Shown here: positions 4,416 through 59,052 of the stretch, piece after piece
Numbering within the stretch: position 1 is the first letter of the stretch
Layout: every line of letters begins with the position of its first letter
NCBI RefSeq assembly: GCF_030013595.1
Contig: NZ_CP122768.1
Reading direction: 5' to 3' (one strand)
DNA from: Escherichia coli
GTDB taxonomy: Bacteria > Pseudomonadota > Gammaproteobacteria > Enterobacterales > Enterobacteriaceae
Length of the DNA stretch: 64,000 bases
Translations under genes and position numbers: made by a program
The notes under the pieces: generated by a model
What the model saw: only the letters and a program-made list of their open reading frames with translations
The model's database searches: none
Told to the model about the DNA's origin: nothing

Positions 4416-4641
4416 ATCAGACTCCTGAGTAGTTTTTTAATTACAAACACCAACAATCTTAGTCAATAATTAATCTAATACCATCAAATAGTTAATCATG
4501 ATTTTTGTTTTGTGATTCTGATTAAGAAAAAGAAAATACCAGACGATAAGACAAAATATCAAGCGTTGTGAAGAAATGTTATGTGCTCTTTTGCGTCTAT
4601 AGTCATGATGTCAAATGAACGCGTTTCGACAGGAAATCATC

Positions 4642-5862
4642 ATGAATAAATATCAGGCAGTGATTATTGGTTTTGGCAAGGCTGGAAAAACATTAGCCGT
4701 CACGCTGGCAAAAGCAGGTTGGCGTGTGGCTCTCATCGAACAATCAAATGCAATGTATGGCGGGACCTGTATTAATATCGGCTGTATCCCAACCAAAACA
4801 TTGGTTCATGACGCACAGCAGCACACAGATTTTGTCCGTGCCATACAGCGTAAAAATGAAGTGGTTAATTTTTTACGTAATAAGAATTTTCATAATCTTG
4901 CGGATATGCCCAATATCGACGTGATCGACGGCCAGGCGGAGTTTATCAATAATCATAGCCTGCGTGTTCATCGGCCTGAGGGAAATCTGGAGATTCATGG
5001 CGAGAAAATTTTTATTAATACCGGTGCACAAACCGTGGTTCCGCCAATTCCTGGAATTACCACCACGCCTGGTGTATATGACAGCACCGGATTACTTAAT
5101 CTAAAAGAATTGCCTGGGCATTTAGGTATTTTGGGCGGCGGATATATTGGCGTTGAGTTCGCCTCTATGTTCGCTAATTTTGGCAGCAAGGTAACCATTT
5201 TAGAAGCAGCTTCGCTGTTTTTGCCTCGGGAAGATCGGGATATTGCTGATAATATCGCGACGATTTTACGCGATCAGGGCGTCGATATTATCCTCAATGC
5301 CCATGTGGAGCGAATCAGTCACCATGAAAATCAAGTGCAAGTGCATAGCGAGCACGCCCAACTGGCGGTGGATGCACTGTTAATAGCTTCCGGTCGTCAA
5401 CCAGCTACCGCTTCGTTACATCCAGAAAATGCCGGTATCGCAGTAAACGAGCGCGGGGCAATTGTCGTTGACAAGCGATTACATACCACCGCAGACAATA
5501 TTTGGGCGATGGGAGATGTTACCGGCGGGCTGCAATTTACTTACATATCACTAGATGATTACCGCATTGTACGTGATGAGTTACTGGGTGAAGGCAAACG
5601 TAGTACTGATGATCGGAAAAATGTGCCTTATTCCGTATTTATGACACCGCCCCTGTCCAGGGTTGGTATGACAGAAGAACAAGCCAGAGAGAGTGGTGCT
5701 GATATTCAGGTGGTGACATTGCCTGTAGCTGCAATTCCGCGCGCCAGAGTGATGAACGATACCCGTGGGGTATTAAAAGCGATTGTTGATAATAAAACCC
5801 AACGTATATTAGGGGCATCACTGCTGTGTGTTGACACGAGAGTATTCAAAACACGCCAATAA
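4642..5862 (+). pseudogene. rclA: rclA (pyridine nucleotide-disulfide oxidoreductase), 5' portion; reading frame leaves native sequence after ...LLCVD (about 5835) and ends in element-derived codons TRVFKTRQ*
   Basis: GFGKAG Rossmann motif, CINIGCIPTK redox-active disulfide; K-12 RclA is 441 aa, here first 398 aa then insertion. Confidence 0.8.
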
Positions 5863-5903
5863 CCTCTTGATTCAATTGAAGTCGAAAATTTTAAGTCAAA
5901 AAT

Positions 5904-5929
5904 CGTATAGCTTAACGTGTAGCTAAAAA
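5904..5929. repeat. Sub-terminal repeat cgtatagctTaacgtgtagctaaaaa (left copy), probable integrase-binding/att-associated site
   Basis: Near-identical copy at 16432-16457 (1 mismatch). Confidence 0.55.
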
Positions 5930-6479
5930 TGTTTGCTGCAAAAGTATACAATTTTAACCGTTATGACTCCCTGTTATCCGTTATCAAGCTGGTGGATGAT
6001 CATGGATAACCCGTTATGGGAATCCCCATATCGGCATCAGGCCCATGCCATAACAAAAACCCCATATTCGTGGGTTTTCTGTGTTGTGGCTATTCTGCCG
6101 TTGCCGTGCTGGTGGATATTTCCGGTATGTGGCTCACCATATCGGCATCACGCCCACCAGCGCGACGCATTTTTTTAATTTCGCGGGTGTAAAAATTTGA
6201 CGGGGCGGGCGGTCCTATAAGCAATGGGGGGTAGGGATTTCGATCCCCCCTCCTGAATGCAATTTTCCGTATGTGGCTGTGCGGCAATCATACTCGTCAC
6301 ATGTTTTTGACAATAAAAGGCCCGACCGTGAGACTCACAAACAAAAAAGTTACGGAGAAACAGGGGATCGGGCTCGGTTGCCGCTAAATCTATTCAATTA
6401 AAAGAAGATGTCAATAGGGAAAACGAAAAAAAACAATGCTGATATTGTCATAATTTGAACAAAACCACTATATGTAGTT

Positions 6480-6710
6480 TTAGTTCATGAGGTTAGTCGC
6501 TACCAGATGCGTCAATAGTTTTTTGCTATTAATAATCCCTCTTTTTCCATCGGGAGCTTTGCACTTGTCACTACCTGGTAACTCCTGGTGGCGTTCCTGT
6601 TGCAGCACAACGGAAACAGGCGCTGAACACCTGTTAATTTTGCTTGCAGGTTGTTTGATTTCGGCAATGCTGCGGATCATCTCCAGCATATCGGCTTCGG
6701 TGATGGTCAT
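6480..6710 (-). CDS. Hypothetical small protein (76 aa) in satellite
   Basis: ORF only; lies just beyond the cos-like repeat block. Confidence 0.25.
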   Translation of the reverse strand: MTITEADMLEMIRSIAEIKQPASKINRCSAPVSVVLQQERHQELPGSDKCKAPDGKRGIINSKKLLTHLVATNLMN

Positions 6711-6718
6711 GATTTACA

Positions 6719-6995
6719 CCTTAGGAAATCTTAGGGGCTGGTTGACACTTTCCGGCTTAAGACCTTAACAAATCTTAACATCGCAGGTTGACACACTTGA
6801 CACTTTTTCGCGAAAAACCTTATCAAACCTTAGCATTTCTAAGCATGGCAACTTGACACTTTTCGCGATTTTTTCGGCTTTTTGACGTGGTAAATCTGGC
6901 GCAAAGCCAGTAACGGCGGGGTTTACAGCGAGGTTGACACTTTTTCGCGTTCAGAGTGTAAAGTGTCAACCTGGCAAGCTGCTCAACTTGACACT
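6719..6995. repeat. Cos/pac-like repeat block: at least 6 direct copies of TTGACAC(TTTT) (6742, 6788, 6797, 6853, 6934, 6988) plus one inverted copy (6963) interleaved with CTTAnnAAAnCTTA repeats
   Basis: Repeats counted directly; adjacent to TerS-like gene. Confidence 0.5.
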
Positions 6996-7003
6996 TTTTG
7001 AGG

Positions 7004-7531
7004 TCATTGATGGCCTGATTTTTCCCACTCAGCCAGGGCGTTTAGTCCGGCTTCACTCCAGTTATCCAGCTCATCGGGACAATCACCTGCAACATAGCAG
7101 AGCTCACAACGCAGCATACGAATTGCCAGCCTGGCATTTTCCCGAAAATCATACTGCTCAAAGTAATATTGCCCAGCATAATCCTCAAGGCAGATAGCAC
7201 CATCATCAAGAAATTGCACTTCACAGCATAGTTCCCCGGCTGCATCCTGTACACGCTGCTGTATGTCATTGTCCGTTACTGGTGCAGGGATTTTACCGTC
7301 TCTGGCCTTAACTGCTTTCCAGAACTCGCCCCACGTCATTTCCAGCGTTCTCTCTGGCCACATTTCAGAAACGGTATCTTTTCCCTGTGCTGGTGGGCTG
7401 TTCCGCTGCTCTGTCGCTTCCACATCGATTTTTTTACCGGACATGACCACTTCGCCTTTCTCGATCCAGTCGTAAACTGTCTGGCGGCTTACGCCTTTGT
7501 GTTTGGCATATTCTGCCTTGCTCATAAACAT
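7004..7531 (-). CDS. Terminase small subunit-like protein (Nu1-type N-terminal HTH); candidate packaging-redirection protein (Rpp-like)
   Basis: N-terminus KAEYAKHKGVSRQTVYDWIEKG resembles lambda Nu1 HTH; no large terminase or capsid gene in element. Confidence 0.55.
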   Translation of the reverse strand: MFMSKAEYAKHKGVSRQTVYDWIEKGEVVMSGKKIDVEATEQRNSPPAQGKDTVSEMWPERTLEMTWGEFWKAVKARDGKIPAPVTDNDIQQRVQDAAGELCCEVQFLDDGAICLEDYAGQYYFEQYDFRENARLAIRMLRCELCYVAGDCPDELDNWSEAGLNALAEWEKSGHQ

Positions 7532-7701
7532 GACACTTCCCCTCAGACTGTATTAATGCGCCGGAAAGCGCGTGTATTTAAATCATCCCAGGAACCGTTG
7601 AGCACCAATTAGTTGCGCGAAGTAATCGGCACCAGCGTTCCGAACAATTTCCAACTTAACGTTCTGATCATTGTTTCCTGCTGCAGGGACAATCCCACGA
7701 T

Positions 7702-8355
7702 TCATAGCCAGCGCCCGGATATTTCTTCCAGTTTTTCCAGAGCTGGCTTGCAGGCCGCATCAATAACTTCACGGACCATTCCGGCGAGCTGTTCTTCTTC
7801 TGTCGGCGTTGTTACTTCCACACCTGATGGTTTCCCGCCCTTATCCCATACGCCCAACGGTACGAGCGCAACGTGATCGATAAGAAATGGCGTACCCTCA
7901 ATGAAAAAATTGTCCTCGCCCATTACATCAGGAACTTCTGCCCCACCGGACGCACCACAAAACACAACCGACGGGCTGGTGGATACCTCCCCCCGTGCTT
8001 TCTGGATGTAATCGATGATTTCCTGCCCGTAAATCCGGCATACGCCCCACACCTCGTCACCGCGAATATACGGCAACATGACGGTGCCAATAATGCGCGA
8101 CCGTTCGCCCACGTCTTCAAGGGTTTTGCTTTCGGGATGGTCGATAATGACGGGTACTCCGGCGCAACGTTCCAGGAACTGCGGATTGAGATAAGTTTGC
8201 GGTGAACGCCAGACAAATTCTTTTTCTTCGGCGCGATAGGCCATTCCGGTTCCTGTGATACGCAGGTTAATCAGCCACATGTTGGAAAACTGATAAGGCG
8301 ACGGTAGCTGACCGTCCCGAATCTGCTTTGCCGCCTCAATTTCTGTTAAAAGCAT
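7702..8355 (-). CDS. Hypothetical protein (217 aa), satellite morphogenesis/packaging region
   Basis: ORF with coding-like composition; no motif recognised. Confidence 0.45.
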   Translation of the reverse strand: MLLTEIEAAKQIRDGQLPSPYQFSNMWLINLRITGTGMAYRAEEKEFVWRSPQTYLNPQFLERCAGVPVIIDHPESKTLEDVGERSRIIGTVMLPYIRGDEVWGVCRIYGQEIIDYIQKARGEVSTSPSVVFCGASGGAEVPDVMGEDNFFIEGTPFLIDHVALVPLGVWDKGGKPSGVEVTTPTEEEQLAGMVREVIDAACKPALEKLEEISGRWL

Positions 8356-8419
8356 AATGTCCCCCGGTTATAAGCAATAAGCCCCACCAAATCCGGCAGG
8401 GCTGAAATCAGCACGTTTT

Positions 8420-9013
8420 TCATGCCCCCGCGAGGCTTGCAACGTTAATTTTAACCAGGCGACGGGGAGGGATTTTGAAAGCACTAAGCCAGTTATTCGG
8501 ATCCCCCTGATATTCAGTAATCCGCCGTCCGGCTTCATCCATTCTTACGGTTTTACGCAAATAGCCCGGCGTATTTTCCACAGCCCACTGAACACTGTCT
8601 TTTGCAGCCTGGTAAATCTGATCTTCCAGCACCGCCAGCGTTGCAGAATCTGAAACGGAACGAATATCCACATCACTGAATTTTTTAGCCAGCTTCTGTG
8701 CACCAATTAATGCACGCTTGCGGTAATCCATCGACTTTTCACCAGCAAACGGGGCTGGAGCGCGACGGCCCATATTGCTGTATGCGGAATCCGCTTTAGC
8801 CTGGGCTTCTGCCAGTGAGGATTCATCTTCGACTGACGCGACGATGTTTTTATTCGCGTCATCCTCGTCCGCTTTTGTGAAATCCTGTGCGGGGATCGCA
8901 TTCAGAATTTCGATAATCTCCTGCGGAGTGCTGCCCTGCGACTCTGACAGAGCGTTAACCACCTCCATCAGTTTTAATCGCAAATCTTCTTTGCTTGCTG
9001 GCATTTTTACCAC
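8420..9013 (-). CDS. Hypothetical protein (197 aa), acidic and Ala/Glu-rich, scaffold-like
   Basis: ORF; composition resembles phage scaffolding proteins (inference only). Confidence 0.4.
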   Translation of the reverse strand: MVKMPASKEDLRLKLMEVVNALSESQGSTPQEIIEILNAIPAQDFTKADEDDANKNIVASVEDESSLAEAQAKADSAYSNMGRRAPAPFAGEKSMDYRKRALIGAQKLAKKFSDVDIRSVSDSATLAVLEDQIYQAAKDSVQWAVENTPGYLRKTVRMDEAGRRITEYQGDPNNWLSAFKIPPRRLVKINVASLAGA

Positions 9014-9043
9014 CTCTCTTTTTTCACCAAAAAATCACGACCA

Positions 9044-9241
9044 TCAGGCCGGACGTTCTACGGGATAAAGCGCCCGCTGCATTAAACGCCGGGCGACCTC
9101 ATGAATGCTCGGAGCAATCCCCAGCGGAGAATTGCGGCGTTCCTCGTCCTGGATGCGCTGTAATGCTTCAATCTGATCACGAGCGAGTAAAACGGGTTTC
9201 ACGCTGGCTTTTCTCATAGTCATATCTCCTGAACAAAACAA
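9044..9241 (-). CDS. Hypothetical small protein (59-65 aa)
   Basis: ORF between PerC-like gene and the 197-aa gene. Confidence 0.3.
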   Translation of the reverse strand: MFCSGDMTMRKASVKPVLLARDQIEALQRIQDEERRNSPLGIAPSIHEVARRLMQRALYPVERPA

Positions 9242-9418
9242 TGATTATGATTGCACAAACTGAAATAACGATCTACATCATTGCAATTTATGAAACAATA
9301 ACGCATGATGATCGCGTTCTTCCCATTGACTTCAATCACCTGAAAAACAAAGCCCGCAACACTTCTGGCTGCGGGTTTTTTACTGGCACAAAAAAGCCGG
9401 GAAAAATCCCGGCCTCCG

Positions 9419-9706
9419 TCACTGACTGCAATTTTTCGATCCAGGGTATTTCCTGAATGCCTTACCATTGGGCTGATGTAATCCCATCCCGGCATGTGCC
9501 CGGCTGATGGTTTCGCGCATTTCCCCGAAATTATCCTGCCTTGCTGGTGGGCGTGCTGCCTTGCGGATACATTCCGCGCGACGTTTTGCCGCCTGTTCCC
9601 GTGCCTTGTCATCATTCGCCAGCATGATGACCTCAGCCCACCGCGCCGCCGCTCTCCGGTACAGACCACGCGCTTCCAGTGCTTCCGCTTTGCTGTCGTG
9701 AATCAT
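9419..9706 (-). CDS. PerC-family-like transcriptional activator (95 aa)
   Basis: Small basic protein with N-terminus MIHDSKAEALEARGLYRRAAARWAEV typical of prophage PerC homologs (from memory). Confidence 0.45.
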   Translation of the reverse strand: MIHDSKAEALEARGLYRRAAARWAEVIMLANDDKAREQAAKRRAECIRKAARPPARQDNFGEMRETISRAHAGMGLHQPNGKAFRKYPGSKNCSQ

Positions 9707-10245
9707 GCGCCTGTTTTCTCCTTTGCTGCCCGGCGCTGACGTTTGCGCTTCTCATTCAGCGCCACCAGCCGCGTTTCTGCGTCCTGTTGTTCCTGTGGTG
9801 TCACCTCGCCGCACGGCTGGCCTTTCAGGTCGTAGCGTACCCCACCAGCCATTAAGGCGCGGTAATAGCGCGGACACTGCGCATAAGATGCCAGCGTCGC
9901 ACGCAATGCCCCTGGACCGAATGCCAGCCCCCTGACGGCGAGATCCTGCATCAGGTCGTCGAATATCCCCACCTTAAGCGGCTTCGGTGCTTCCCGGCTG
10001 AATAATTCAGGCCACAACTCAGTGAGGCGGTTAACGCGCCTGCGGTTTTTGCGCTGGCGTTTGGTCATATGCCGCCACGGTGTCGCCCCTGTGGGCTTCT
10101 GCTGCGCTTTCTGGTTACCGGGCATCACTTTATGCGCCGATGTGGTTTTATCCTGCTCCTGCGCCGCCTGCGTCGTTTTCTGCGGCGTGCCGTAAATGCC
10201 TTTCGGTTTTCTGTTAATGGTCAGCTTAGTCATGCTTTGCCCCAT
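9703..10245 (-). CDS. ProQ/FinO-domain RNA-binding protein (180 aa)
   Basis: PKPLKVGIFDDL ... YAQCPRYYRAL ... RYDLKGQPCGEVT matches ProQ/FinO N-terminal domain pattern; K/R-rich tail. Confidence 0.6.
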   Translation of the reverse strand: MGQSMTKLTINRKPKGIYGTPQKTTQAAQEQDKTTSAHKVMPGNQKAQQKPTGATPWRHMTKRQRKNRRRVNRLTELWPELFSREAPKPLKVGIFDDLMQDLAVRGLAFGPGALRATLASYAQCPRYYRALMAGGVRYDLKGQPCGEVTPQEQQDAETRLVALNEKRKRQRRAAKEKTGA

Positions 10246-10392
10246 CGTTTTTACTGGTTGCTACGTTGCCCAACGGCACTGACACAACATTCTGTTTTCA
10301 TTTTTAACATTCCTGATTTTTTAATTCCTCACCTGCTGCACAGTGAAAATTTATGAAGTTAATAACAATATGATTTTAAATGTATTTTTAAG

Positions 10393-10713
10393 TACTCACT
10401 TTTTAATCCTTATATATACGCAAAAGTGAGGTAAATAGTTAAGTTTTAGTTAATATCTTGCATGGTGTGTTTTTTAACCTACCTGTTATTTTTATTACCT
10501 CATTTCTATTAACTCACCATTCCTCACTTTTGTTCCTCACTTTTTATTATTCTTGTTCTGCTCCTCAGTCGTTTTCTTTATTGTTGTAATCTGTTGTTTT
10601 GCAATGTGTTTTTAACTCCTCACTTTTTGACCTATATACAGGTGAGAAAGTGAGGAGTGGCGTTGATTTTTTGTTAAATTACCCGCCATCCTCACTTTTG
10701 CTCCTCACTTTTT
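10393..10713. repeat. Iteron-type replication origin: at least 7 copies of CCTCACTTTT (direct and inverted) in AT-rich DNA immediately 3' of rep
   Basis: Copies at about 10395, 10421 (inv), 10522, 10534, 10617, 10645 (inv), 10691, 10703. Confidence 0.6.
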
Positions 10714-12127
10714 ACAGTGGGCGCACATAATCACCGTCAATAGCGATTACGCCGTCGCTTTCCAGCTTGTACAGCCAGCGCCGGAAGTTTTTCATTTCAT
10801 ACCCCAGCTTTTTCATATCATCGCGGAGAAGGGCGATAGTGCACGCCTCCCCGTGTGCTGTTCGCGTTCTGATGCACTGCCATAGCGCAGCGTGATTTTC
10901 CGTCTTGTTCCCGGCCTCCTCGATGCGTTCCAGTTCAACAGGTGGGCGCGGCTTATCCACAACCACCAGCGACGTGATTAACTCCCCGTCAGTGTCGGTA
11001 AAAAGCTCCACCACGCGTAAATCATATGCAGCCTCTTTCAGTTCCTCCGCGTCCTTCATTTTGGTGCAGGAGATAACCAGGGCTTCACTGTCCGCACCTT
11101 CACGGCGAATACGGTATTCAGCGTCCAGAGATGCACGAAATGCACTGGAACCACGCGCCCCTTTTGTTTCATCCTTGCCGGAATGGTGAACCACCAGTAC
11201 CGTGGCCCCTGTGCGTCGTTTCAGTTCGTCACATCCACGGATAAACGCCCCCATATCCCGCGCGTCATTTTCATCATTACCGCCAAAGCAACGCGCCAGC
11301 GTATCCAGAATAATCATGCGTACCGGTTTACCCGTTTCCCGTTCAACCTGACGGGAAGCGATGACCATTTCATCAACATCAAGCGGGACCGCCGGAAAAA
11401 TCGGGCGGTTTACCAGGTACAGATTTTTCACCCGTTCATCATTAACGATTTCCCATGCTTTGATACGACGAGGAACACCGATCCCGCCCTCACCAACGAC
11501 ATACATAACCGCACCATGTACAACCCTGCGACCTCCCCAGTGGCGACCAGTGGCAACATGACACGCCCAGGAACACGCGAGGAACGATTTATAGGAACCG
11601 CTCGCGCCGTATGTGCTGCACAACGAATTAGCCGGAATCACGCCCTTAACGACATAATCAAGCTGTGTGTCGTATCCTGCAGATCCAATACTCATTGGTA
11701 GCGTGGTTTTTCGCTGGCTGTATTGCTCGTCAGTAAGTATTTCCCCGCGCTCTGCCTGTTCGCGGATCCGTTGCAGGTAGTCGTGCCAGTTCTCCAGCTT
11801 CTGGCTGTGCATTCCCTCAGGGTAATAATTCGCATCCCGTACACCTGCCGCCGCCAGTTTTTGCCCGATGGCATTAATATTTGACGGCTTGATGTGGCCT
11901 GCCTTGTACAGCCGGACACAATAGCGACCATCGTCGATAATTTTCAGGTCTGCCAGTTCGTCAAGCTGGCTGTCTCCCAGCCATACAGGCGGAACATTGT
12001 CGCCAGCAAGTCGCCCGTCCTGTTCCTGCCATTGTTTCGCGTGCGCCCAGGCATCACTACCCGCAAAAATAATGACTTCGGTCATTTTGTCGTGTGGCTG
12101 TTTTTTTAAGTTCGGTGCCAGTTTCAT
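10712..12127 (-). CDS. RepA-like replicative helicase / AAA_25-type ATPase (471 aa)
   Basis: Walker A GASGSYKS, Walker B MIILDTL, VVHHSGK; adjacent iterons. Confidence 0.7.
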   Translation of the reverse strand: MKLAPNLKKQPHDKMTEVIIFAGSDAWAHAKQWQEQDGRLAGDNVPPVWLGDSQLDELADLKIIDDGRYCVRLYKAGHIKPSNINAIGQKLAAAGVRDANYYPEGMHSQKLENWHDYLQRIREQAERGEILTDEQYSQRKTTLPMSIGSAGYDTQLDYVVKGVIPANSLCSTYGASGSYKSFLACSWACHVATGRHWGGRRVVHGAVMYVVGEGGIGVPRRIKAWEIVNDERVKNLYLVNRPIFPAVPLDVDEMVIASRQVERETGKPVRMIILDTLARCFGGNDENDARDMGAFIRGCDELKRRTGATVLVVHHSGKDETKGARGSSAFRASLDAEYRIRREGADSEALVISCTKMKDAEELKEAAYDLRVVELFTDTDGELITSLVVVDKPRPPVELERIEEAGNKTENHAALWQCIRTRTAHGEACTIALLRDDMKKLGYEMKNFRRWLYKLESDGVIAIDGDYVRPL

Positions 12128-12423
12128 TTTGTGCCCCTGAATGCGTTAATCATGTTTTTCATTTTCTGAATATTTGCCCGTGCCTTTGCGTTGCTGGTGG
12201 GCTGTTTGCGTGGTGTGGCCTGTATCAGTGAAAAATCACGCCGGAACTGATAAACAGGCATCACGCAGTCGTAGCTGTACCCATCACGGCGGTAAGTAAC
12301 GCACCGTCCGGCAATACTTTTAATCGTTACCGTGCCGCCGTAGTTATCCCGGAAAATATCGCCGGGGCGGATTTCAGGCCGAGGGAGACCACTGGCAGTA
12401 AAGCCAGAATTTTTCTTTTTCAT
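12124..12423 (-). CDS. Hypothetical protein (99 aa), translationally coupled to rep (4-bp overlap)
   Basis: ORF; operon packing. Confidence 0.45.
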   Translation of the reverse strand: MKKKNSGFTASGLPRPEIRPGDIFRDNYGGTVTIKSIAGRCVTYRRDGYSYDCVMPVYQFRRDFSLIQATPRKQPTSNAKARANIQKMKNMINAFRGTK

Positions 12424-12427
12424 GGTT

Positions 12428-12628
12428 TTATTTTCCTGTCAGCAGTTCCGGTTTTATTTCCGCACGAATACAGAGTTCAGAAAAAAATTCAGGAGAACCA
12501 ACAATCTCATTACTTTTCAGTCGGCATTGTGATTTCACTTTCCCTTTATCCAGGTAAACCAGTATGCGTCCGGTGAAATCATCTGGCACACTCAGGGTAA
12601 TTGTCATTGTTGCTTGCTGATTATCCAT
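12428..12628 (-). CDS. Hypothetical protein (66 aa) with one FTG-x-LV repeat unit
   Basis: Shares about 50-aa repeat with upstream 121-aa protein. Confidence 0.4.
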   Translation of the reverse strand: MDNQQATMTITLSVPDDFTGRILVYLDKGKVKSQCRLKSNEIVGSPEFFSELCIRAEIKPELLTGK

Positions 12629-12986
12629 GATTCACCCCCTGAATAACCTGATAACCGCAACTGGTCAGCAATTCGATAAATTCCGGCAGTGTTCCGAAAC
12701 AGCAATCATCTCGCAGCCGTTCTCGGGATACTTCAACGCCGTTTTCGTAGTGACTCACCATGCGTCCGGTAAAATGCAGATCATCATCGTGATGGCTCGT
12801 TAACGGCTTAATCAGTCGCGCACGTTCTGCCAGCTCCAGCAATGCTTCAACGCTTCCGGCAATTGCACCATCCGGCAGGTGATAATTACTTGCCACGCGT
12901 CCATTCTCCACGTTAACCAGTAGCTGCCCGGTGAATTTCTCATCAAACTGAATGCTGTTAAGGTCAGAAATTGACAGGTTAATCAT
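12621..12986 (-). CDS. Hypothetical protein (121 aa) with two internal FTG-x-LV repeat units
   Basis: Internal duplication visible in translation; 8-bp overlaps with neighbours. Confidence 0.45.
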   Translation of the reverse strand: MINLSISDLNSIQFDEKFTGQLLVNVENGRVASNYHLPDGAIAGSVEALLELAERARLIKPLTSHHDDDLHFTGRMVSHYENGVEVSRERLRDDCCFGTLPEFIELLTSCGYQVIQGVNHG

Positions 12987-13344
12987 GGCGTACCTCCTGG
13001 CGAATACGGGCAGCGAATACCATCACGCAGCCATCAGGAGATTGCTGGCGTGCTTCCTGTTCGCTGGTGGCCACGATGTGAATCACGCGCGGTTGTGCGG
13101 TGCTCAGGGCGATAAAACGCCAGATAAAATTGTTTTCGCATTTCTGAATAAACAGCGTGTTTTCTTCGCGCCCTTTCCATGTTGCCGAGATATAGCCCAT
13201 GCCATTGAGCATCTCGCAGGCATCAACCAGCGTATCAGCGGCTACGTGTACAGTGTTTTTACCGTCAGCTATGCAATCACGGTGCACCGCCAGGAAGGTG
13301 TATATAAATTTAGGGTGAGTTTGGGTATGCTGTGTTCCAGCCAT
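12979..13344 (-). CDS. Hypothetical protein (121 aa); first gene of alpA-distal operon
   Basis: ATG at 13344 with AGGT RBS; the 478-aa ORF-track extension to 14415 is judged spurious. Confidence 0.45.
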   Translation of the reverse strand: MAGTQHTQTHPKFIYTFLAVHRDCIADGKNTVHVAADTLVDACEMLNGMGYISATWKGREENTLFIQKCENNFIWRFIALSTAQPRVIHIVATSEQEARQQSPDGCVMVFAARIRQEVRHD

Positions 13345-13545
13345 AATCGTTACCTCATTTAACGGTTTGGTTAGAAGCCCCGTTACTGCTCCAACAGTGC
13401 GGGGCTTCGTCGTTTCAATTGCTGAATTGCATGTATCAGCCCTTGTGGTATTCAGATTACATTTTGGTGAATACCATTTCAAGTCTTTTTTGGTATTCAC
13501 TTTTGTATTACACTGCATCCCGTTATTAATCGGAGGTGCAAACAT

Positions 13546-13849
13546 GTCCACGAGTTCTGTTAACAATAAGTCACAGCAACTGAATGCCAGATTTCCACAT
13601 GAAGTAGTGAGTGGCATTGAGGCATCCCTACAGCCAGGGGAAACTAAAGCGAATTTTATAGTTACGGCTGTACGCGGTGAGATCGCCCGCCGCCAGGCAG
13701 AAGGAAGCGGAGAAAACCCCCTGGTTTCTTCGCTCGATGCGCTGGCGCAGGTGGAAAAAATCGGAGTCAAAGCTGCCGAGGAGATCGGGCAGCTCGTCAC
13801 CGTCGCACGTGAAGAACTCCAGCGCCGCAAGGCCAAAGAATCAGAATAA
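13546..13849 (+). CDS. Putative ribbon-helix-helix-like DNA-binding protein (101 aa), divergent from the rep operon
   Basis: GGAGG RBS; inverted repeats TGGTATTCA / TGAATACCA at about 13445-13500 upstream. Confidence 0.4.
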
Positions 13850-13906
13850 TAACTATCATCGCCGTGGTGTGAGGAACTCCGGCGCATTGCTTTACAGGTA
13901 CACAGA

Positions 13907-14107
13907 ATGACCAACAAAGAATCAACCAAAACACCATCACCAACCCGGAAGAGACGTCGCAAAAATATGACGCACGAGCATGAATCAGACAGATTCGCGC
14001 CGTGTGCGTTTGTCCTTGAGACGTTCCTTAAAGAGTACAGGCGCACAAAATTAGGGCCACATACCTGGAAAACATCGCGACATAGCGATATTAAAGAGCA
14101 GGAATAG
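13907..14107 (+). CDS. Hypothetical small basic protein (66 aa)
   Basis: ORF downstream of RHH-like gene; R/K-rich N-terminus. Confidence 0.3.
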   Translation: MTNKESTKTPSPTRKRRRKNMTHEHESDRFAPCAFVLETFLKEYRRTKLGPHTWKTSRHSDIKEQE

Positions 14108-14240
14108 CCCACCAGCAAGTCAGCATATTCACCATAATGACCCTCGGTTAAACCTAGAGTCATTGGTGCAAACCTGACACATTGCCCACCAGCCAGCAAA
14201 TCGCTATGATATTTGGGCTTATGTTTAGTGTTTTCCCATT

Positions 14241-14268
14241 GGCGACCGCCCCCGGTCGCCTTTGTTTT
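14241..14268 (+). terminator. Rho-independent terminator (GGCGACCG-cccc-CGGTCGCC + T-run)
   Basis: Perfect 8-bp stem followed by TTTGTTTTG. Confidence 0.55.
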
Positions 14269-14321
14269 GCCCGTTATCCGGCAATTGTGGCGCTTCGCCA
14301 CACGGTTGATATAATTCCCCT

Positions 14322-14392
14322 GCACTGATCCATTTTTTTCGCAGCAGGTTAATTGTTCGCAAGGGCGCTCCGGCAACGGGGCGCTTTTTGTT
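14322..14392 (+). ncRNA. Candidate ~70-nt small RNA: extended -10 (TGaTATAAT, 14307-14315) to terminator hairpin 14361-14389 with GNRA-like loop and T-run
   Basis: Promoter-like element and terminator ~70 nt apart in a 310-bp non-coding gap, convergent with alpA 3' end. Confidence 0.3.
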
Positions 14393-14419
14393 ATGTTCAT
14401 CGCGTTACGCCTCACACCA

Positions 14420-14626
14420 TTACGCAGCCGTTCCGCGCGCTTCTTCCTCGCGCTCTTTCAGCCAGGCCAGCACTTCATCTTCATACCAGCCAACACGACG
14501 CAGACCGATTTTGAAGCCTTTCGGGAATTTTCCGGCGTTGATCATGTCCTGTAGCGAACTGTCTGCCTTGATGCGCAGAATATTTTTTACTTCCTGACGG
14601 GTAAGTATTTTTCTGATTGTTTCCAC
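14420..14626 (-). CDS. alpA: AlpA-family transcriptional regulator (68 aa)
   Basis: Typical AlpA/Vis-like size and HTH (LRIKADSSLQDMINAGKFPKGFKIG) next to integrase. Confidence 0.75.
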   Translation of the reverse strand: METIRKILTRQEVKNILRIKADSSLQDMINAGKFPKGFKIGLRRVGWYEDEVLAWLKEREEEARGTAA

Positions 14627-14690
14627 TATGTTTTACCTCGTTAATCCGGCGTATTCCGGTGATAAATACGGTAAAACAGGGCAGGGCGGG

Positions 14691-14732
14691 AAAAACAGTA
14701 CCCACCGTTTTAAAACGGTACCCACTGTTTTT
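14691..14732. promoter_or_regulatory. Tandem operator-like sites AAAAC(A/G)GTACCCAC(C/T)GTTTT x2 upstream of alpA
   Basis: Two 20-bp near-identical units in the alpA promoter region. Confidence 0.4.
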
Positions 14733-14795
14733 ATCTCATTGATTACGCTTTTCTTTCTGCAAAAAAATAGCGACCGCAAAGGGCCGCTATTGTGA

Positions 14796-15026
14796 TTACC
14801 GTTTCCACTTCTTAGGTCGCCCACCGCATTTAAGGCTGGTGGGCCTCAGCACCTTGTCGATGCTTTCAGCCAGATTTTTCGATGCACCACGCGAGCGCAA
14901 AAAACTGACTACCTCGTGTTTTGTGGGGGCTGTTGATTTGTCTTCCGGATCGTATGTTGACCAGAATTCACGATTTGCCATTAACGCCAGTTGCAGCCCT
15001 TCGCCGTAGGCGGTGGTATTTTGCAT
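14796..15026 (-). CDS. Hypothetical small protein (76 aa) between int and alpA
   Basis: ORF only. Confidence 0.25.
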   Translation of the reverse strand: MQNTTAYGEGLQLALMANREFWSTYDPEDKSTAPTKHEVVSFLRSRGASKNLAESIDKVLRPTSLKCGGRPKKWKR

Positions 15027-15124
15027 AATAGAATTTTCATATACTCCGGCCTTGTCGTTAAATTTGTGGCAATTATACGATGGTTTGGCATGGTTTGCAT
15101 CGCTTTTACTGGCTTTTTGTACAG

Positions 15125-16366
15125 CTACACGGCACGGATACCCCTTTTACCGCTGGCTATGGTCACTCCGGTAGCTGCAGCCTCCACAAATTCACCCCAC
15201 CAGCGCATAAGCACCACGCGCTTTTCCAGGTAGTTACTTCGGTTATATGCCCGCCTTACCTCGTTCGTGTCCACGTGTGCGAGTGCGGCCTCGATTACGT
15301 CCGGTTCGAATCCTTCCTCGTTCGCTGCTGTGCTGAATATGGCGCGTAATCCGTGAGACACCAGCACACCAGCGTAACCCATCCGGCGTAATGCAGCGTT
15401 AGCGGTCTGGCTGCTCATTGGCAGCATCGGATTTTTAAGGCTGGGAAAAACGTGTTCCCTGTGTGCGCTGATTGGCTTCATGGTTTCCAGTACAGCCATA
15501 GCCTGACCGCAAAGGGGGATCACATGGTCACGGCGCATCTTCATGCGTCCGGCTGGAATCGTCCAGGTTTCGGCATCGAGATCTATTTCTTCCCAGCGTG
15601 CGGCGGCTGCTTCGGCTGGGCGTGCTACGGTCAGCAGTTGCCACTCAATCAGCAATCTGGTTTGCCGTTCTATGCTGGCGACCGATAAATCGTGCATTAG
15701 CTGCGGTAGCTGTTCCGGTCGGATGGTTGGCATGTGCTTTTTGGTGGGTGAGGGGAATGCCTTGCGGACGTTCGCGGCGGTGTTGATGTCAATCAGCCCA
15801 CTGTTGGCGGCAAAATCCATCACTTCATTGATGCGCTGCAAAACGCGTTTCAGAGTTTCCAGGTTGCCGCGTGCTTTAATGGGGGTGAGTATCTCAACAA
15901 AGCGGCGAGCGGTGAGGGTATCTATTGGCGTGTTTCCGATGTACGGGAATACGTATTTTTCCAGGGATCGCCAGATATCCTTAATCGTGTTGTAAGCCAG
16001 ATTCTGGCCTTTTTTCATCTCGTACCAGTCCGAGGCAACTTTTTCGAACGTGTTGCCCTTTTTCCGGCTCTCTGCTTCACGTTTCCGGCGTTCATGGTCC
16101 TGTGGGTCAGTTCCCTTTGCTATTAGTGACCTGTATTCATTCCGTCGCTCTCTGGCATCAGACAGGGAAACATCATTCAGCGATCCAAGGCTGATAATAG
16201 TCCGTTTTTTATCTGCCGGGCGGTAGTACGTAAAACGCCATATTTTTGATCCGGAGGGCTTCACCAGAAGAAATAATCCTCCGCCATCCTGCAGGGTGTA
16301 TTCCTTTTCCCCTGGTCGTGCGTTTTTGATCTCCGTAATGGTTAGTGGGGTGGTTTTTCGTGCCAT
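15125..16366 (-). CDS. Tyrosine site-specific integrase (P4-type, 413 aa)
   Basis: N-terminal arm-binding-like region and C-terminal catalytic domain (HGLRAIFST ... R..Y); adjacent repeat cluster. Confidence 0.85.
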   Translation of the reverse strand: MARKTTPLTITEIKNARPGEKEYTLQDGGGLFLLVKPSGSKIWRFTYYRPADKKRTIISLGSLNDVSLSDARERRNEYRSLIAKGTDPQDHERRKREAESRKKGNTFEKVASDWYEMKKGQNLAYNTIKDIWRSLEKYVFPYIGNTPIDTLTARRFVEILTPIKARGNLETLKRVLQRINEVMDFAANSGLIDINTAANVRKAFPSPTKKHMPTIRPEQLPQLMHDLSVASIERQTRLLIEWQLLTVARPAEAAAARWEEIDLDAETWTIPAGRMKMRRDHVIPLCGQAMAVLETMKPISAHREHVFPSLKNPMLPMSSQTANAALRRMGYAGVLVSHGLRAIFSTAANEEGFEPDVIEAALAHVDTNEVRRAYNRSNYLEKRVVLMRWWGEFVEAAATGVTIASGKRGIRAV

Positions 16367-16380
16367 GTTTTTTTACCCAT

Positions 16381-16457
16381 CGGTAGCTATATGCCTGGTC
16401 GTAGCTATACGGCTTTAGCTACACGCTGGACCGTATAGCTAAACGTGTAGCTAAAAA
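16381..16457. repeat. Integrase-proximal repeat cluster (GTAGCTATAC / CGTATAGCTA / CGTGTAGCTA inverted and direct units) including right copy of sub-terminal repeat (16432-16457)
   Basis: Matches left copy at 5904-5929. Confidence 0.55.
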
Positions 16458-16509
16458 ATCCGGTTATAACCCTATCTTACCGATTCAATCCGGCGACTGA
16501 AAACAACAA

Positions 16510-16543
16510 AAAAGCCCGTTAATCAGTAAATTAACGGGCTTTC
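16510..16543 (-). terminator. Hairpin AGCCCGTTAAT-loop-ATTAACGGGCT with T-run on minus strand
   Basis: 11-bp stem; on the minus strand followed by TTTTTTGTTGTTTT. Confidence 0.4.
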
Positions 16544-16555
16544 AATAGGTTACCG

Positions 16556-16710
16556 ATGCTGTCCGATATTCAATTTGGTCGGCACGAGATGATCAATATA
16601 GTGAAAATGGTGATGGATGCCGGGCTGCCTTATAGCATATTACGCGATCAGATATTTACTCATCCGTCGATGAGCGAATCACTCAATGATCTATTTTCAT
16701 TAGTCAAATA
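16556..16710 (+). pseudogene. rclA: rclA 3' remnant encoding ...HEMINIVKMVMDAGLPYSILRDQIFTHPSMSESLNDLFSLVK*
   Basis: Matches remembered RclA C-terminal dimerisation region; in-frame ATG at 16556 is element-derived. Confidence 0.7.
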
Positions 16711-16819
16711 AACTCAAAATCAGACGCCAGAACAAATATTCTGGCGTCTCAGAGAAAAGAATCTTATTAATTCCCTGTTACTTTATAACTTCTTAATCAC
16801 TTCATTGATGGTATTTTAT

Positions 16820-38025: not shown

Positions 38026-38059
38026 CTATAATCGCGGGGCTTCGTTTTTCAGGGATAAC
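38026..38059 (+). terminator. Terminator after ykgJ (GCCCCGC ... GCGGGGC + T-run)
   Basis: Stem-loop with TTCGTTTTT. Confidence 0.55.
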
Positions 38060-38241
38060 AAAACCCGAAACTTCTTCCATCTGCCAGCAACAATGCCTCT
38101 TCCTCTATAGTGTTCTCCGGATCTACAGCATCCTGAAGTAGCGCGATGTACTCATTGGCTATCTGCATCAGAAAGTTAAAAACAATGTTTTTAACCTATA
38201 AAAATGGCGCTTTATTTGCGCCATTTTTATCATTCAATGCA

Positions 38242-54849: not shown

Positions 54850-55525
54850 CGATCTGACATTTGCATTCAACTTCGTTACTTACGGCCCGTAAACGGGCTG
54901 CCCGGATATGGAATCGATAACTGCTCCCCCATTTTATCCTCTTCAAGCTGGTGCTTTATGTAGTCCTGTATCTTCGCCGTGTTCTTACCCACCGTATCGA
55001 CATAGTACCCTCGGCACCAGAACTCCCTGTTTCTGTATTTGAATTTCAAATCCCCAAACTGCTCGTAAAGCATCAGACTGCTTTTCCCTTTCAGATATCC
55101 CATAAAGCCGGATACGCTCATTTTGGGTGGGATTTCCACAAGCATATGGATATGATCTGCGCAGCACTCTGCTTCCAGAATCCGTACGCTTTTCCACTCA
55201 CACAGCTTTCTCAAAATACTGCCTATCGCCCTACGCTTCTCTCCGTAAAACGCCAGTCTTCGGTATTTCGGCGCAAAAACTATGTGATATTTACAGTTCC
55301 AGCGGGTGTGCGCTAAGCTCTTTTCGTCCCCCATTGGGACCCCCTTTTGATTTCTTGTTTGACACTTGCAGTTGCCAGACCGCAAGGTGTTTTAACAAAT
55401 CAAAAGGGGTTTTAATAACTGGCTCAAAGCTGAAAGCTTTCCGGAACCCCCAGCCTAGCTGGGGGTTTTCTGTGCACAAAAAGCCGCGTCTCCCGGAGAA
55501 GACGCGGCCTGATGGGTGAAATGAA
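54850..55525. mobile_element. IS200/IS605-family insertion sequence (approximate ends)
   Basis: Y1/HUH transposase ORF flanked by structured ends; hairpins at 55340-55520. Confidence 0.65.
54876..55334 (-). CDS. tnpA: IS200-type transposase TnpA (about 152 aa)
   Basis: HUH motif HIHMLVEIPP and catalytic Tyr region YYVDTVG. Confidence 0.8.
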   Translation of the reverse strand: MGDEKSLAHTRWNCKYHIVFAPKYRRLAFYGEKRRAIGSILRKLCEWKSVRILEAECCADHIHMLVEIPPKMSVSGFMGYLKGKSSLMLYEQFGDLKFKYRNREFWCRGYYVDTVGKNTAKIQDYIKHQLEEDKMGEQLSIPYPGSPFTGRK

Positions 55526-58681: not shown

Positions 58682-58898
58682 CAGCTTTTCCTTACAGAGG
58701 GTGAATAAAAAAGCCGGTACCCACAAATATGGGTACCGGCAGGTACAAAACAGCATGGTCAGATAAAGTGGTTTTTCCCGGACATAAATGCTTCTCCTCT
58801 CTCATCCGCCAGAGAAGTATCAGTCCGTTGTGTGCAATTCCGTTCTGCATGATGAAGAGATTCAGCTGCCTTTTCGCAGACCATTAACCACTATAAAC

Positions 58899-58934
58899 GA
58901 TCGATGGTAACGATCGATACATGTTTTATCGATC
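58899..58934. promoter_or_regulatory. Three GATC (Dam) sites at 58899, 58912, 58931 in Ag43 upstream region: OxyR/Dam phase-variation switch
   Basis: cGATCGATggtaacGATCGATacatgttttatcGATCGtttt, 220-250 bp upstream of flu start. Confidence 0.65.
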
Positions 58935-59052
58935 GTTTTATTCTATTAACAGCAAGGCAGTCACGCAAGAGAAAGAGGTGGGTATGAGGTGTTTGTGTCA
59001 TGTTTTCAGTTGGTTAACGCAATGTAATCAGGCATTTCCCCTGGCAGAGTGT

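Follow-up and report, generated by a model that had tools for sequence, protein, structure and literature searches.

The stretch of Escherichia coli DNA considered here (NCBI RefSeq assembly GCF_030013595.1, contig NZ_CP122768.1), called the window below and taken at its whole length of 64,000 nucleotides, carries a phage satellite of ~10.75 kb (5842-16589), which interrupts the gene rclA, the latter running to 5835 and resuming at 16590. The subject of the analysis is the left end of this element, 640 bp (5842-6480) that had been described in an earlier note, made from the sequence of the window, as non-coding DNA with direct repeats and a hairpin. Inward from the chromosome junction, this end contains the integrase-related repeats, a tandemly repeated module with Chi octamers, and a short tract shared with phage phiP27. 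As judged from sequence comparison, with a probability of about 80%, the 640 bp are the attachment (att) and cohesive-end (cos) end of a satellite of the phage-inducible chromosomal island (PICI) type, whose cos site would have been copied from phiP27-type helper phages and would act by plain cos mimicry.

Boundaries of the satellite and its cohesive-end site

The boundaries of the element were established by alignment with E. coli ETEC6335, in which a near-identical element (99.8% over 5841-6283) lies at the 3' end of a tRNA-Pro gene beside yejO, the usual site. The first satellite-specific base is 5842, and because ETEC6335 carries the same element at tRNA-Pro, the left boundary that had been proposed at 5841 corresponds to the true left end of the satellite, exactly to the base, with the att core ending at 5841. 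The insertion in rclA is, by this alignment, a secondary site that shares just the hexamer ACGAGA with the usual tRNA-Pro target, and the rclR-rclA flank of the window is 99.9% identical to pig E. coli isolates. A PICI is understood here as an element of ~10-15 kb with an integrase gene, an AlpA-type regulator, a replication protein with iterons, no tail or lysis genes, and flanking att repeats; the integrase, AlpA, the replication protein with adjacent iterons, the size and the att repeats were all found in the element. It is a PICI-type phage satellite, its genes being those of an E. coli PICI and all lying on the - strand, and no terminase gene was revealed in the satellite by its Pfam and PHROG annotation.

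When the 640 bp were searched against 50,697 phage records, only 6172-6253 had a counterpart, namely the feature that AJ298298, the phiP27 record, annotates as 'cos-site', the window being identical to phiP27 at 44/44 positions over 6172-6215. In phiP27 the order of the packaging genes is HNH (PF01844), cos, the small terminase subunit TerS of the Terminase_4 'P27 family' (PF05119), and the large subunit TerL. The block AATTTCGCGGGyGTrAAAATTyGAC, followed by 10 nt and GGTCC, is conserved in the Burkholderia phages of the phiE125 type. The ends of the phiE125 group and phi644-2 have been determined as ten-base 3' extensions, 3'-GCGGGCGAAG-5' on the left and 5'-CGCCCGCTTC-3' on the right (PMC2920897). 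The 10 nt of the satellite at 6202-6211, designated cosN, line up position by position with GAAGCGGGCG, the 10-base 3' extension determined for phi644-2/phiE125, and are homologous to a determined cohesive-end site with 10-nt 3' overhangs; the genome record of phage SfI terminates at the same cosN boundary. Such a phiP27-type cos is a cos type undescribed in the literature on E. coli PICIs consulted for comparison.

On the side of terS, the identity with phiP27 spans exactly 30 bp, so that the helper flank is conserved at all its positions, with the motif ACCCGCG and an A/T tract at 14-30 bp from the cut. For HK97, which serves as the model of HNH-dependent cos packaging, the minimal TerS site occupies the positions 15-29 from the cut and needs C:G at 21 together with the adjoining A-tract (PMC11331095). 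By position, in analogy with HK97, 6172-6201 is the predicted binding site of the P27-family TerS of a helper. The terS side of the phage is the left side in the window coordinates, and therefore packaging would start at 6201, run toward 5842 and go round to 6212. The flank on the opposite, cosQ side exists in a satellite-specific version, which stays conserved in satellites whose terS-side flanks are of three different kinds, while the blocks common to phages and satellites on this side are only AGGGATTT and CCCCTCC.

The two features that had drawn attention to this place as a possible promoter with an adjacent hairpin are, by this alignment, the cos packaging site. The hexamers TTGACG (6197-6202) and TATAAG (6216-6221) are present, and straddle the cohesive-end site, TTGACG being the last bases before cosN and running into it, and TATAAG starting five bases past it. 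However, they are separated by a 13-nt spacer, with two hexamers 16-18 nt apart as the sigma-70 criterion, and the sigma-70 scan was silent on them; the sites that the promoter and terminator scan did call are no commoner than in shuffled sequences. The hairpin with the TTCG loop exists at 6226-6253, pairing as GGGGGG..GGGAT-TTCG-ATCCC-CCCTCC, but is not conserved as a structure. Folded as DNA it reaches -7.2 kcal/mol (z = -0.99), with 33/200 dinucleotide shuffles being equally stable, and across 15 aligned homologous cos regions its columns pair in 61% of cells, no more than when the partners are shifted by 1-3 columns, and only one cell is compensatory. It is a local accident of the G and C runs within a conserved flank and no conserved structure.

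A small structured RNA or a small protein as the product of the region is highly improbable, even though hairpins may be drawn both at the cos flank, as above, and in the repeat module (RNAalifold, -19 kcal/mol), transcription entering the region could start from a sigma-70-like site on the - strand, and open reading frames (ORFs) of 58-81 codons are present. Rfam yields nothing in the region, either at the gathering threshold over the whole window or at E<=10 over 5600-7200, and the module contains 0 compensatory pairs, with the covariation term of ~0 in RNAalifold, the covariation tests being weak because the aligned sequences are too similar. The promoter-like site sits in the non-conserved spacer. 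None of the ORFs in 5842-6480 has a Pfam or PHROG match, and no ORF is conserved in length or frame, since in the 38 related loci the stretch left open over the repeat measures anything between 14 and 134 codons and indels of 1 and 5 nt are present; the counterpart of the region in ETEC6335 was left unannotated by RefSeq. Thus, of the statements in the earlier note, the non-coding nature of the left end and the implausibility of its listed ORFs as genes have been borne out, while the structured RNA and the promoter have not.

Several observations weigh against the proposed origin and use of the cos site. The phiP27 'cos-site' itself rests on the annotation in GenBank, and there is no helper within the window, where the cos core occurs once. 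The placement of the TerS site is an analogy because the P27 TerS is without sequence similarity to the HK97 TerS. Finally, in the ETEC4090 prophage, the only one inspected in a genome with a satellite, the flank on the terS side is of another type and TerL is truncated, so that the two do not make a matching pair of helper and satellite. The features of the left end and of the remaining satellite are collected in Table 1.

Table 1. Features of the satellite left end and satellite genes, in window coordinates
Feature	Position	Strand	Details
att core ACGAGA	5836-5841	.	shared by both junctions, second copy 16584-16589; from alignment with ETEC6335
Putative integrase arm-type repeats (TATAGCTTA / GTAGCTA)	5904-5929	+	26-nt direct repeat, 96% identical, at 16432-16457 beside int
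Distal module copy	5958-6045	.	~90% conserved in 38 IMG/VR loci
CCGTTAT, three copies	5958, 5978, 6011		within distal module copy
Chi GCTGGTGG	5988-5995	+	between inverted repeats
Near-palindrome TATGGGAATCCCCATA	6015-6030		within distal module copy
111-bp segment duplicating the module	6046-6156	.	includes Chi and the second 20-mer
Terminator-like small hairpin	6061-6074		terminator scan; frequency not above chance
Chi	6108-6115	+	inside the 111-bp segment
Chi (GCTGGTGG on the - strand)	6154-6161	-	40 bp from the left cohesive end
terS-side flank of cos (ACCCGCG, then A/T tract)	6172-6201	-	30/30 identical to phiP27; conserved in Burkholderia phiE125-type phages
cosN, 10 nt, predicted to give 3' cohesive ends (GGGGCGGGCG / CGCCCGCCCC)	6202-6211	.	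the 'cos-site' annotated in AJ298298
cosQ-side flank, satellite-specific version (GTCCyATAAGCAATGGG..GTAGGGATTTCGATCCCCCCTCCTGAATGCAATTTT)	6212-6283	.	contains hairpin 6226-6253
Variable (mosaic) spacer	6284-6480	.	outside the conserved att/cos end
sigma-70-like TTGACA-16-TAGATT	6414 to 6387	-	promoter scan; within the non-conserved spacer
76-codon ORF	6480-6710	-	
175-aa helix-turn-helix protein	7004-7531	-	
RepA-like AAA_25 helicase	10712-12127	-	TCCTCACTTTT iterons follow
AlpA	14420-14626	-	
int	15125-16366	-	
ProQ/FinO, PerC, two phrog_6216 pieces including DUF2213	satellite	-	

The duplicated module and its Chi sites

The 20-bp direct repeat reported for the left end is real, with the copies located exactly at 6026-6045 (CCATATCGGCATCAGGCCCA) and 6137-6156 (CCATATCGGCATCACGCCCA), 1-5 nt off the positions first given, and with 2 matches observed vs 0.01 expected per window at <=3 mismatches. 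The 20-mers end longer diverged tandem units, 5978-6045 and 6098-6156. Because the satellite of E. coli ETEC4090 aligns colinearly with the window except that precisely the 111 bp from one 20-mer to the other are missing, the repeats bound a tandem duplication or, conversely, mark a deletion by recombination between the copies. With the 20-mer, 38 loci were recovered from IMG/VR, most of them on contigs of 10-13 kb. The exact two-copy form of the repeat pair is rare (the window, ETEC6335, L026 and L034), most satellites having one module unit and not two, but the module itself is ~90% conserved, with the consensus ...TATCCGyyATsAAGCTGGTGGATGATCACGGATAAnCCGTTATGGGAATCCCCATATCGGCATCAnGCCCACCAGC. 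The module is present in 416/5426 complete E. coli genomes and absent from the 50,697 phage records. In the species-representative genomes, the 20-mer gave 11 matches, nearly all in unrelated taxa and about as many as expected by chance, which are uninformative on its spread beyond E. coli.

The satellites that bear the module are otherwise mosaic, with integrases only 22-25% identical, with different replication and interference genes, and, in most of them, with no detectable homologue of the window AlpA. A partner of the module specific to the integrase, AlpA or Rep is disfavoured because of this mosaicism, which points to a host or helper factor; a linkage of the module to AlpA or Int was considered as well and is ruled out on the same ground. 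The repeats between the att core and the module are, from their sequence, most likely the arm-type sites of the integrase: besides the direct repeat next to int, three further copies of their TAGCTA motif are found beside this gene, and satellites with other integrases contain different tandem repeats in their place. The earlier suggestion of an att-proximal region thus holds in part, the arm-type repeats being att-proximal, but the region is mainly a cos site and neither a promoter nor a structured RNA.

The position of the module has also to be considered in terms of recombination, as a part of the int-distal att arm in which AlpA excisionase, IHF or Fis would bind at the CCGTTAT repeats. 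The module is indeed located 117-320 bp from the att core, just past the arm-type repeats, in every satellite, and three directly repeated copies of CCGTTAT are packed into 60 bp; in lambda attP, direct repeats of the corresponding arm are the targets of Xis-type proteins. However, directionality factors normally co-vary with their integrase, whereas the module keeps its ~90% conservation despite such divergent integrases and the missing AlpA homologue, and the arm-type repeats beside it change with the integrase while the module does not. A role of this kind appears, therefore, quite unlikely.

Very unlikely is the assignment of the tandem repeats of ~111-120 bp to a cis-required replication region like crr of P4. 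The layout of P4 is alike, with an att core, arm repeats and two ~120-bp direct repeats (crr at L053 4291-4590, beside the attP arm repeats), and resembles the 111-bp duplication of the window, but neither sequence nor iterons are shared. The ori-like iterons TCCTCACTTTT of the satellite (10387-10714) are absent from 5958-6161, whereas the P4 crr carries the ori iterons; the single unit of most satellites also speaks against it, and the module is kept across the Rep proteins that match only partly (53-90% identity over ~28% of the protein in most loci).

The module unit holds Chi twice, in opposite orientations, and its duplication results in three copies, none of them farther than 215 bp from the cohesive end, on its terS side. 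The exact octamer 5'-GCTGGTGG-3' is over-represented, with three in 640 bp vs 0.14 expected at the K-12 rate (P = 4e-4). It is the commonest octamer of the satellite, with 15 copies per 10.7 kb (8 on the + and 7 on the - strand; 1 per 0.72 kb) vs a mean of 0.56 for the octamers of the same composition, and the remaining 53 kb of the window contain 5 copies. The density is 0.96 per kb over 39 related satellite contigs, and 0.40 per kb in phiP27 (17 in 42.6 kb), with 0 copies in P4, the module satellites being the most Chi-dense E. coli replicons compared here (~1 per kb). Lambdoid phages without recombination or anti-RecBCD genes have been found to be Chi-rich and to grow better with RecBCD, with the densities of 1 per 1.86 kb in LLS and 1 per 1.9 kb in P1, as compared with 1 per 4.6 kb in K-12, for which the published rationale is that recombination supplies the concatemers needed for packaging (PMC12315714). 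Satellites go unmentioned in that work, and the literature search revealed no paper linking Chi to PICIs. By analogy, the logic of the high-Chi phages would extend to these satellites.

It is possible, as a tentative reading, that the module is a satellite-specific cis element coupling the hijacked cos to RecBCD-RecA by means of a pair of opposed Chi whose distances from the left cohesive end are fixed at ~40 and ~90 bp. The - strand Chi near cosN (33-41 bp from the left end) is retained in 25/25 satellites with a mapped cos and is the sole module element present in all of them. Against such a role of the Chi sites, this conserved copy is oriented for RecBCD moving toward the end and is inactive for entry there, the Chi correctly oriented for the left-end entry (~86-95 bp) is found in 18/25 of the satellites, and the orientations are balanced over the element (8:7). 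In addition, conservation of the module reaches far outside the octamers, more than Chi alone can account for.

As another explanation of the place of the module, it might, with its repeats, be the satellite's own cosB, bound by a specificity factor of the satellite that would divert the helper terminase in the manner of Rpp in EcCICFT073. A cos of the P27 type is found near the module in 31/38 loci, and in 24 of them the module ends 40-48 bp from cosN, where lambda has its cosB. The module is satellite-specific, a phrog_1561 gene adjoins this end in 32/38 loci, and the N-terminus of the 175-aa protein encoded in the window matches a TerS PHROG (phrog_57, 5e-7) and is modelled to fold as a Xis/BldC-type winged helix. 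However, the 30-bp terS-side flank of the helper is intact, whereas the Rpp-type PICIs have replaced cosB, and the distance between the module and cos is 258 bp in the other 7 loci. The window satellite possesses neither a DUF1441/Rpp gene nor an intact phrog_1561 gene; the 175-aa protein is confined to the elements of the window and ETEC6335, while the module is in all; and the fold search of this protein yielded neither Rpp nor Nu1. A cosB of this sort is considered unlikely, and plain cos mimicry remains the preferred reading.

Related satellites and neighbouring genes

The 10 nt of cosN vary among the related satellites (GGGGCGGGCG, GGGGCTGGCA, GAGGCGTGCG and others). On either side of cosN, one large group of satellites matches the phages SfII, ST64B and SfI at 92-95%, and another group has the terS-side flank as in the P27-family prophage of ETEC4090; the satellite lineages carry cos variants matched to different phages of the same packaging type. 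In that prophage, the identity with phiP27 runs from HNH to cosN, after which the terS-side flank differs (L049 2380-2600 vs L001 2940-3130), and in many E. coli prophages the match to the phiP27 query is confined to its half with HNH and cos (518-937), the full length being matched in 18/924 genomes. Packaging modules would seem to have been joined in mosaic fashion at cosN.

To the right of the conserved end, the identity with ETEC6335 ends at 6283, and 6284-7003 is covered in full by just one complete E. coli genome. The phrog_1561 protein (93-95 aa) of the related satellites is encoded beside their cos/module end (for example, L013 1339-1626 and L010 2919-3200), and the 76-codon ORF of the window resembles it in its ~14 N-terminal residues, a pattern that would fit replacement of the gene at a recombination joint. 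The Rpp/DUF1441-type satellite L013 has a lambda-type cosQ/cosN upstream of the DUF1441 gene (2290-2345, - strand) as well as a P27-type cos near its end (1195-1260, + strand), which suggests that such satellites with two kinds of cos can use two helper families.

The 175-aa protein occurs across Enterobacterales, where it is annotated as hypothetical. In its AlphaFold2 model (pLDDT 89.5), the N-terminal ~50 residues match winged helices of the Xis/BldC type (Pukovnik Xis, probability 0.98), and its C-terminal alpha/beta domain has no structural match in the PDB; the sequence search of the PDB was empty, and no similarity to the P27 TerS was found. Between its gene and the 76-codon ORF, at 6742-7003, the repeat TTGACACTTT(TTCGCG) is present in six copies, five direct and one inverted, each resembling a -35 box; these repeats may be the binding sites of the adjacent Xis/BldC-like protein.

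Among the other parts of the element, the iterons TTTnnnTCCTCACTTTTT, in four to five copies at 10387-10714, lie directly downstream of the gene for the RepA-like helicase and are probably the replication origin of the satellite. A GTG-initiated ORF of 478 codons (12979-14415, - strand), odd in composition and overlapping ETEC6335 genes on both strands (Icd-like, YlcI/YnfO), is almost certainly not a gene. The interrupted rclA, which encodes a reactive-chlorine resistance oxidoreductase, lies at 4615-5841 and 16590-16711, and at its left junction 3 bases expected from the intact gene seem to be missing. Elsewhere in the window, Rfam matches of the gathering level, all on the - strand, are IS009 (38036-38236), the Hfq-binding small RNA STnc490 (55344-55467) and IS102 RNA (58700-58936), and no tRNA is found in the window.

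Packaging proposal and comparison with known systems

On these grounds, the satellite would read, inward from the chromosome junction, as arm-type sites, a tandem-duplicated Chi module and a full phiP27-type cos. Upon the induction of a P27-type helper, with its HNH protein, P27-family TerS and TerL, the satellite would excise and replicate, and the helper TerS would bind the 30-bp flank identical to the helper's own. TerL and HNH would then cut at 6202-6211 to leave the 10-nt 3' cohesive ends, and the packaging would proceed leftward through the module and the closed att junction to the next cos, in the mode of plain cos mimicry rather than of Rpp-type redirection. The Chi sites may let the satellite, lacking Gam and Red, use the host RecBCD-RecA, which could supply multimers for cos packaging and spare linear DNA; this is the least certain step.

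If so, phages with the P27-family terminase and HNH packaging, including the Stx2e toxin phage P27, would probably be the helpers of these satellites, which form a widespread group in E. coli. Many of the 416 genomes bearing the module are from pig enterotoxigenic or Shiga toxin-producing E. coli, and the satellites could interfere with, or travel alongside, a toxin-converting phage. The module together with cos may serve as a simple sequence marker for the packaging end of such satellites. The density of Chi would extend the rule of 'no recombination genes, many Chi sites' from phages to satellites, and, if the coupling to RecBCD-RecA is true, these PICIs would depend on Chi-stimulated recombination for packageable multimers or for the survival of their linear DNA, with the module as a marker and control point for the satellite transfer.

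Satellites carrying the cos of their helper are already known, namely P4, SaPIbov5 and EcCICFT073. Like the window satellite, SaPIbov5 and P4 are small integrative satellites without a terminase of their own that carry a non-coding copy of the helper cos, and the helpers of SaPIbov5 use HNH-dependent cos packaging, as does the phiP27 type. They differ from the window satellite in the host and sequence family, the cos here being of the phiP27 type with a P27-family TerS and 10-nt 3' ends; P4 has the 19-nt cos of P2 and zero Chi, and a Chi-bearing module beside cos has not been reported for either of them. As compared with the cos of phiP27, phiE125, SfII and ST64B, the window shares the position and length of the cohesive ends, with ACCCG and the A/T tract 14-30 bp from the cut as in HK97, but has no flanking hnh and terS, the Chi module and the att arm being in place of terS. 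The high-Chi phages, such as LLS, likewise have Chi as their top octamer in a replicon without recognisable recombination or anti-RecBCD functions, although with 1 per 1.9 kb vs 1 per 0.72 kb in the satellite, and with the orientations of 20:3 vs 8:7. The closest in host and element class (int, alpA, rep, PerC) is EcCICFT073, which also combines the helper cosN with satellite-specific DNA on the cosB side. However, its cos1 and cos2 are of the lambda type, with the cosQ TTTACGGGTCCTTCC and a 12-nt 5' end, and, the helper cosB having been lost, Rpp (DUF1441) is needed, whereas the window satellite has no lambda-type cosQ (within 2 mismatches), no DUF1441 gene and no replaced cosB, and so lacks the marks of Rpp-type redirection and keeps the terS-side flank of its presumed helper.

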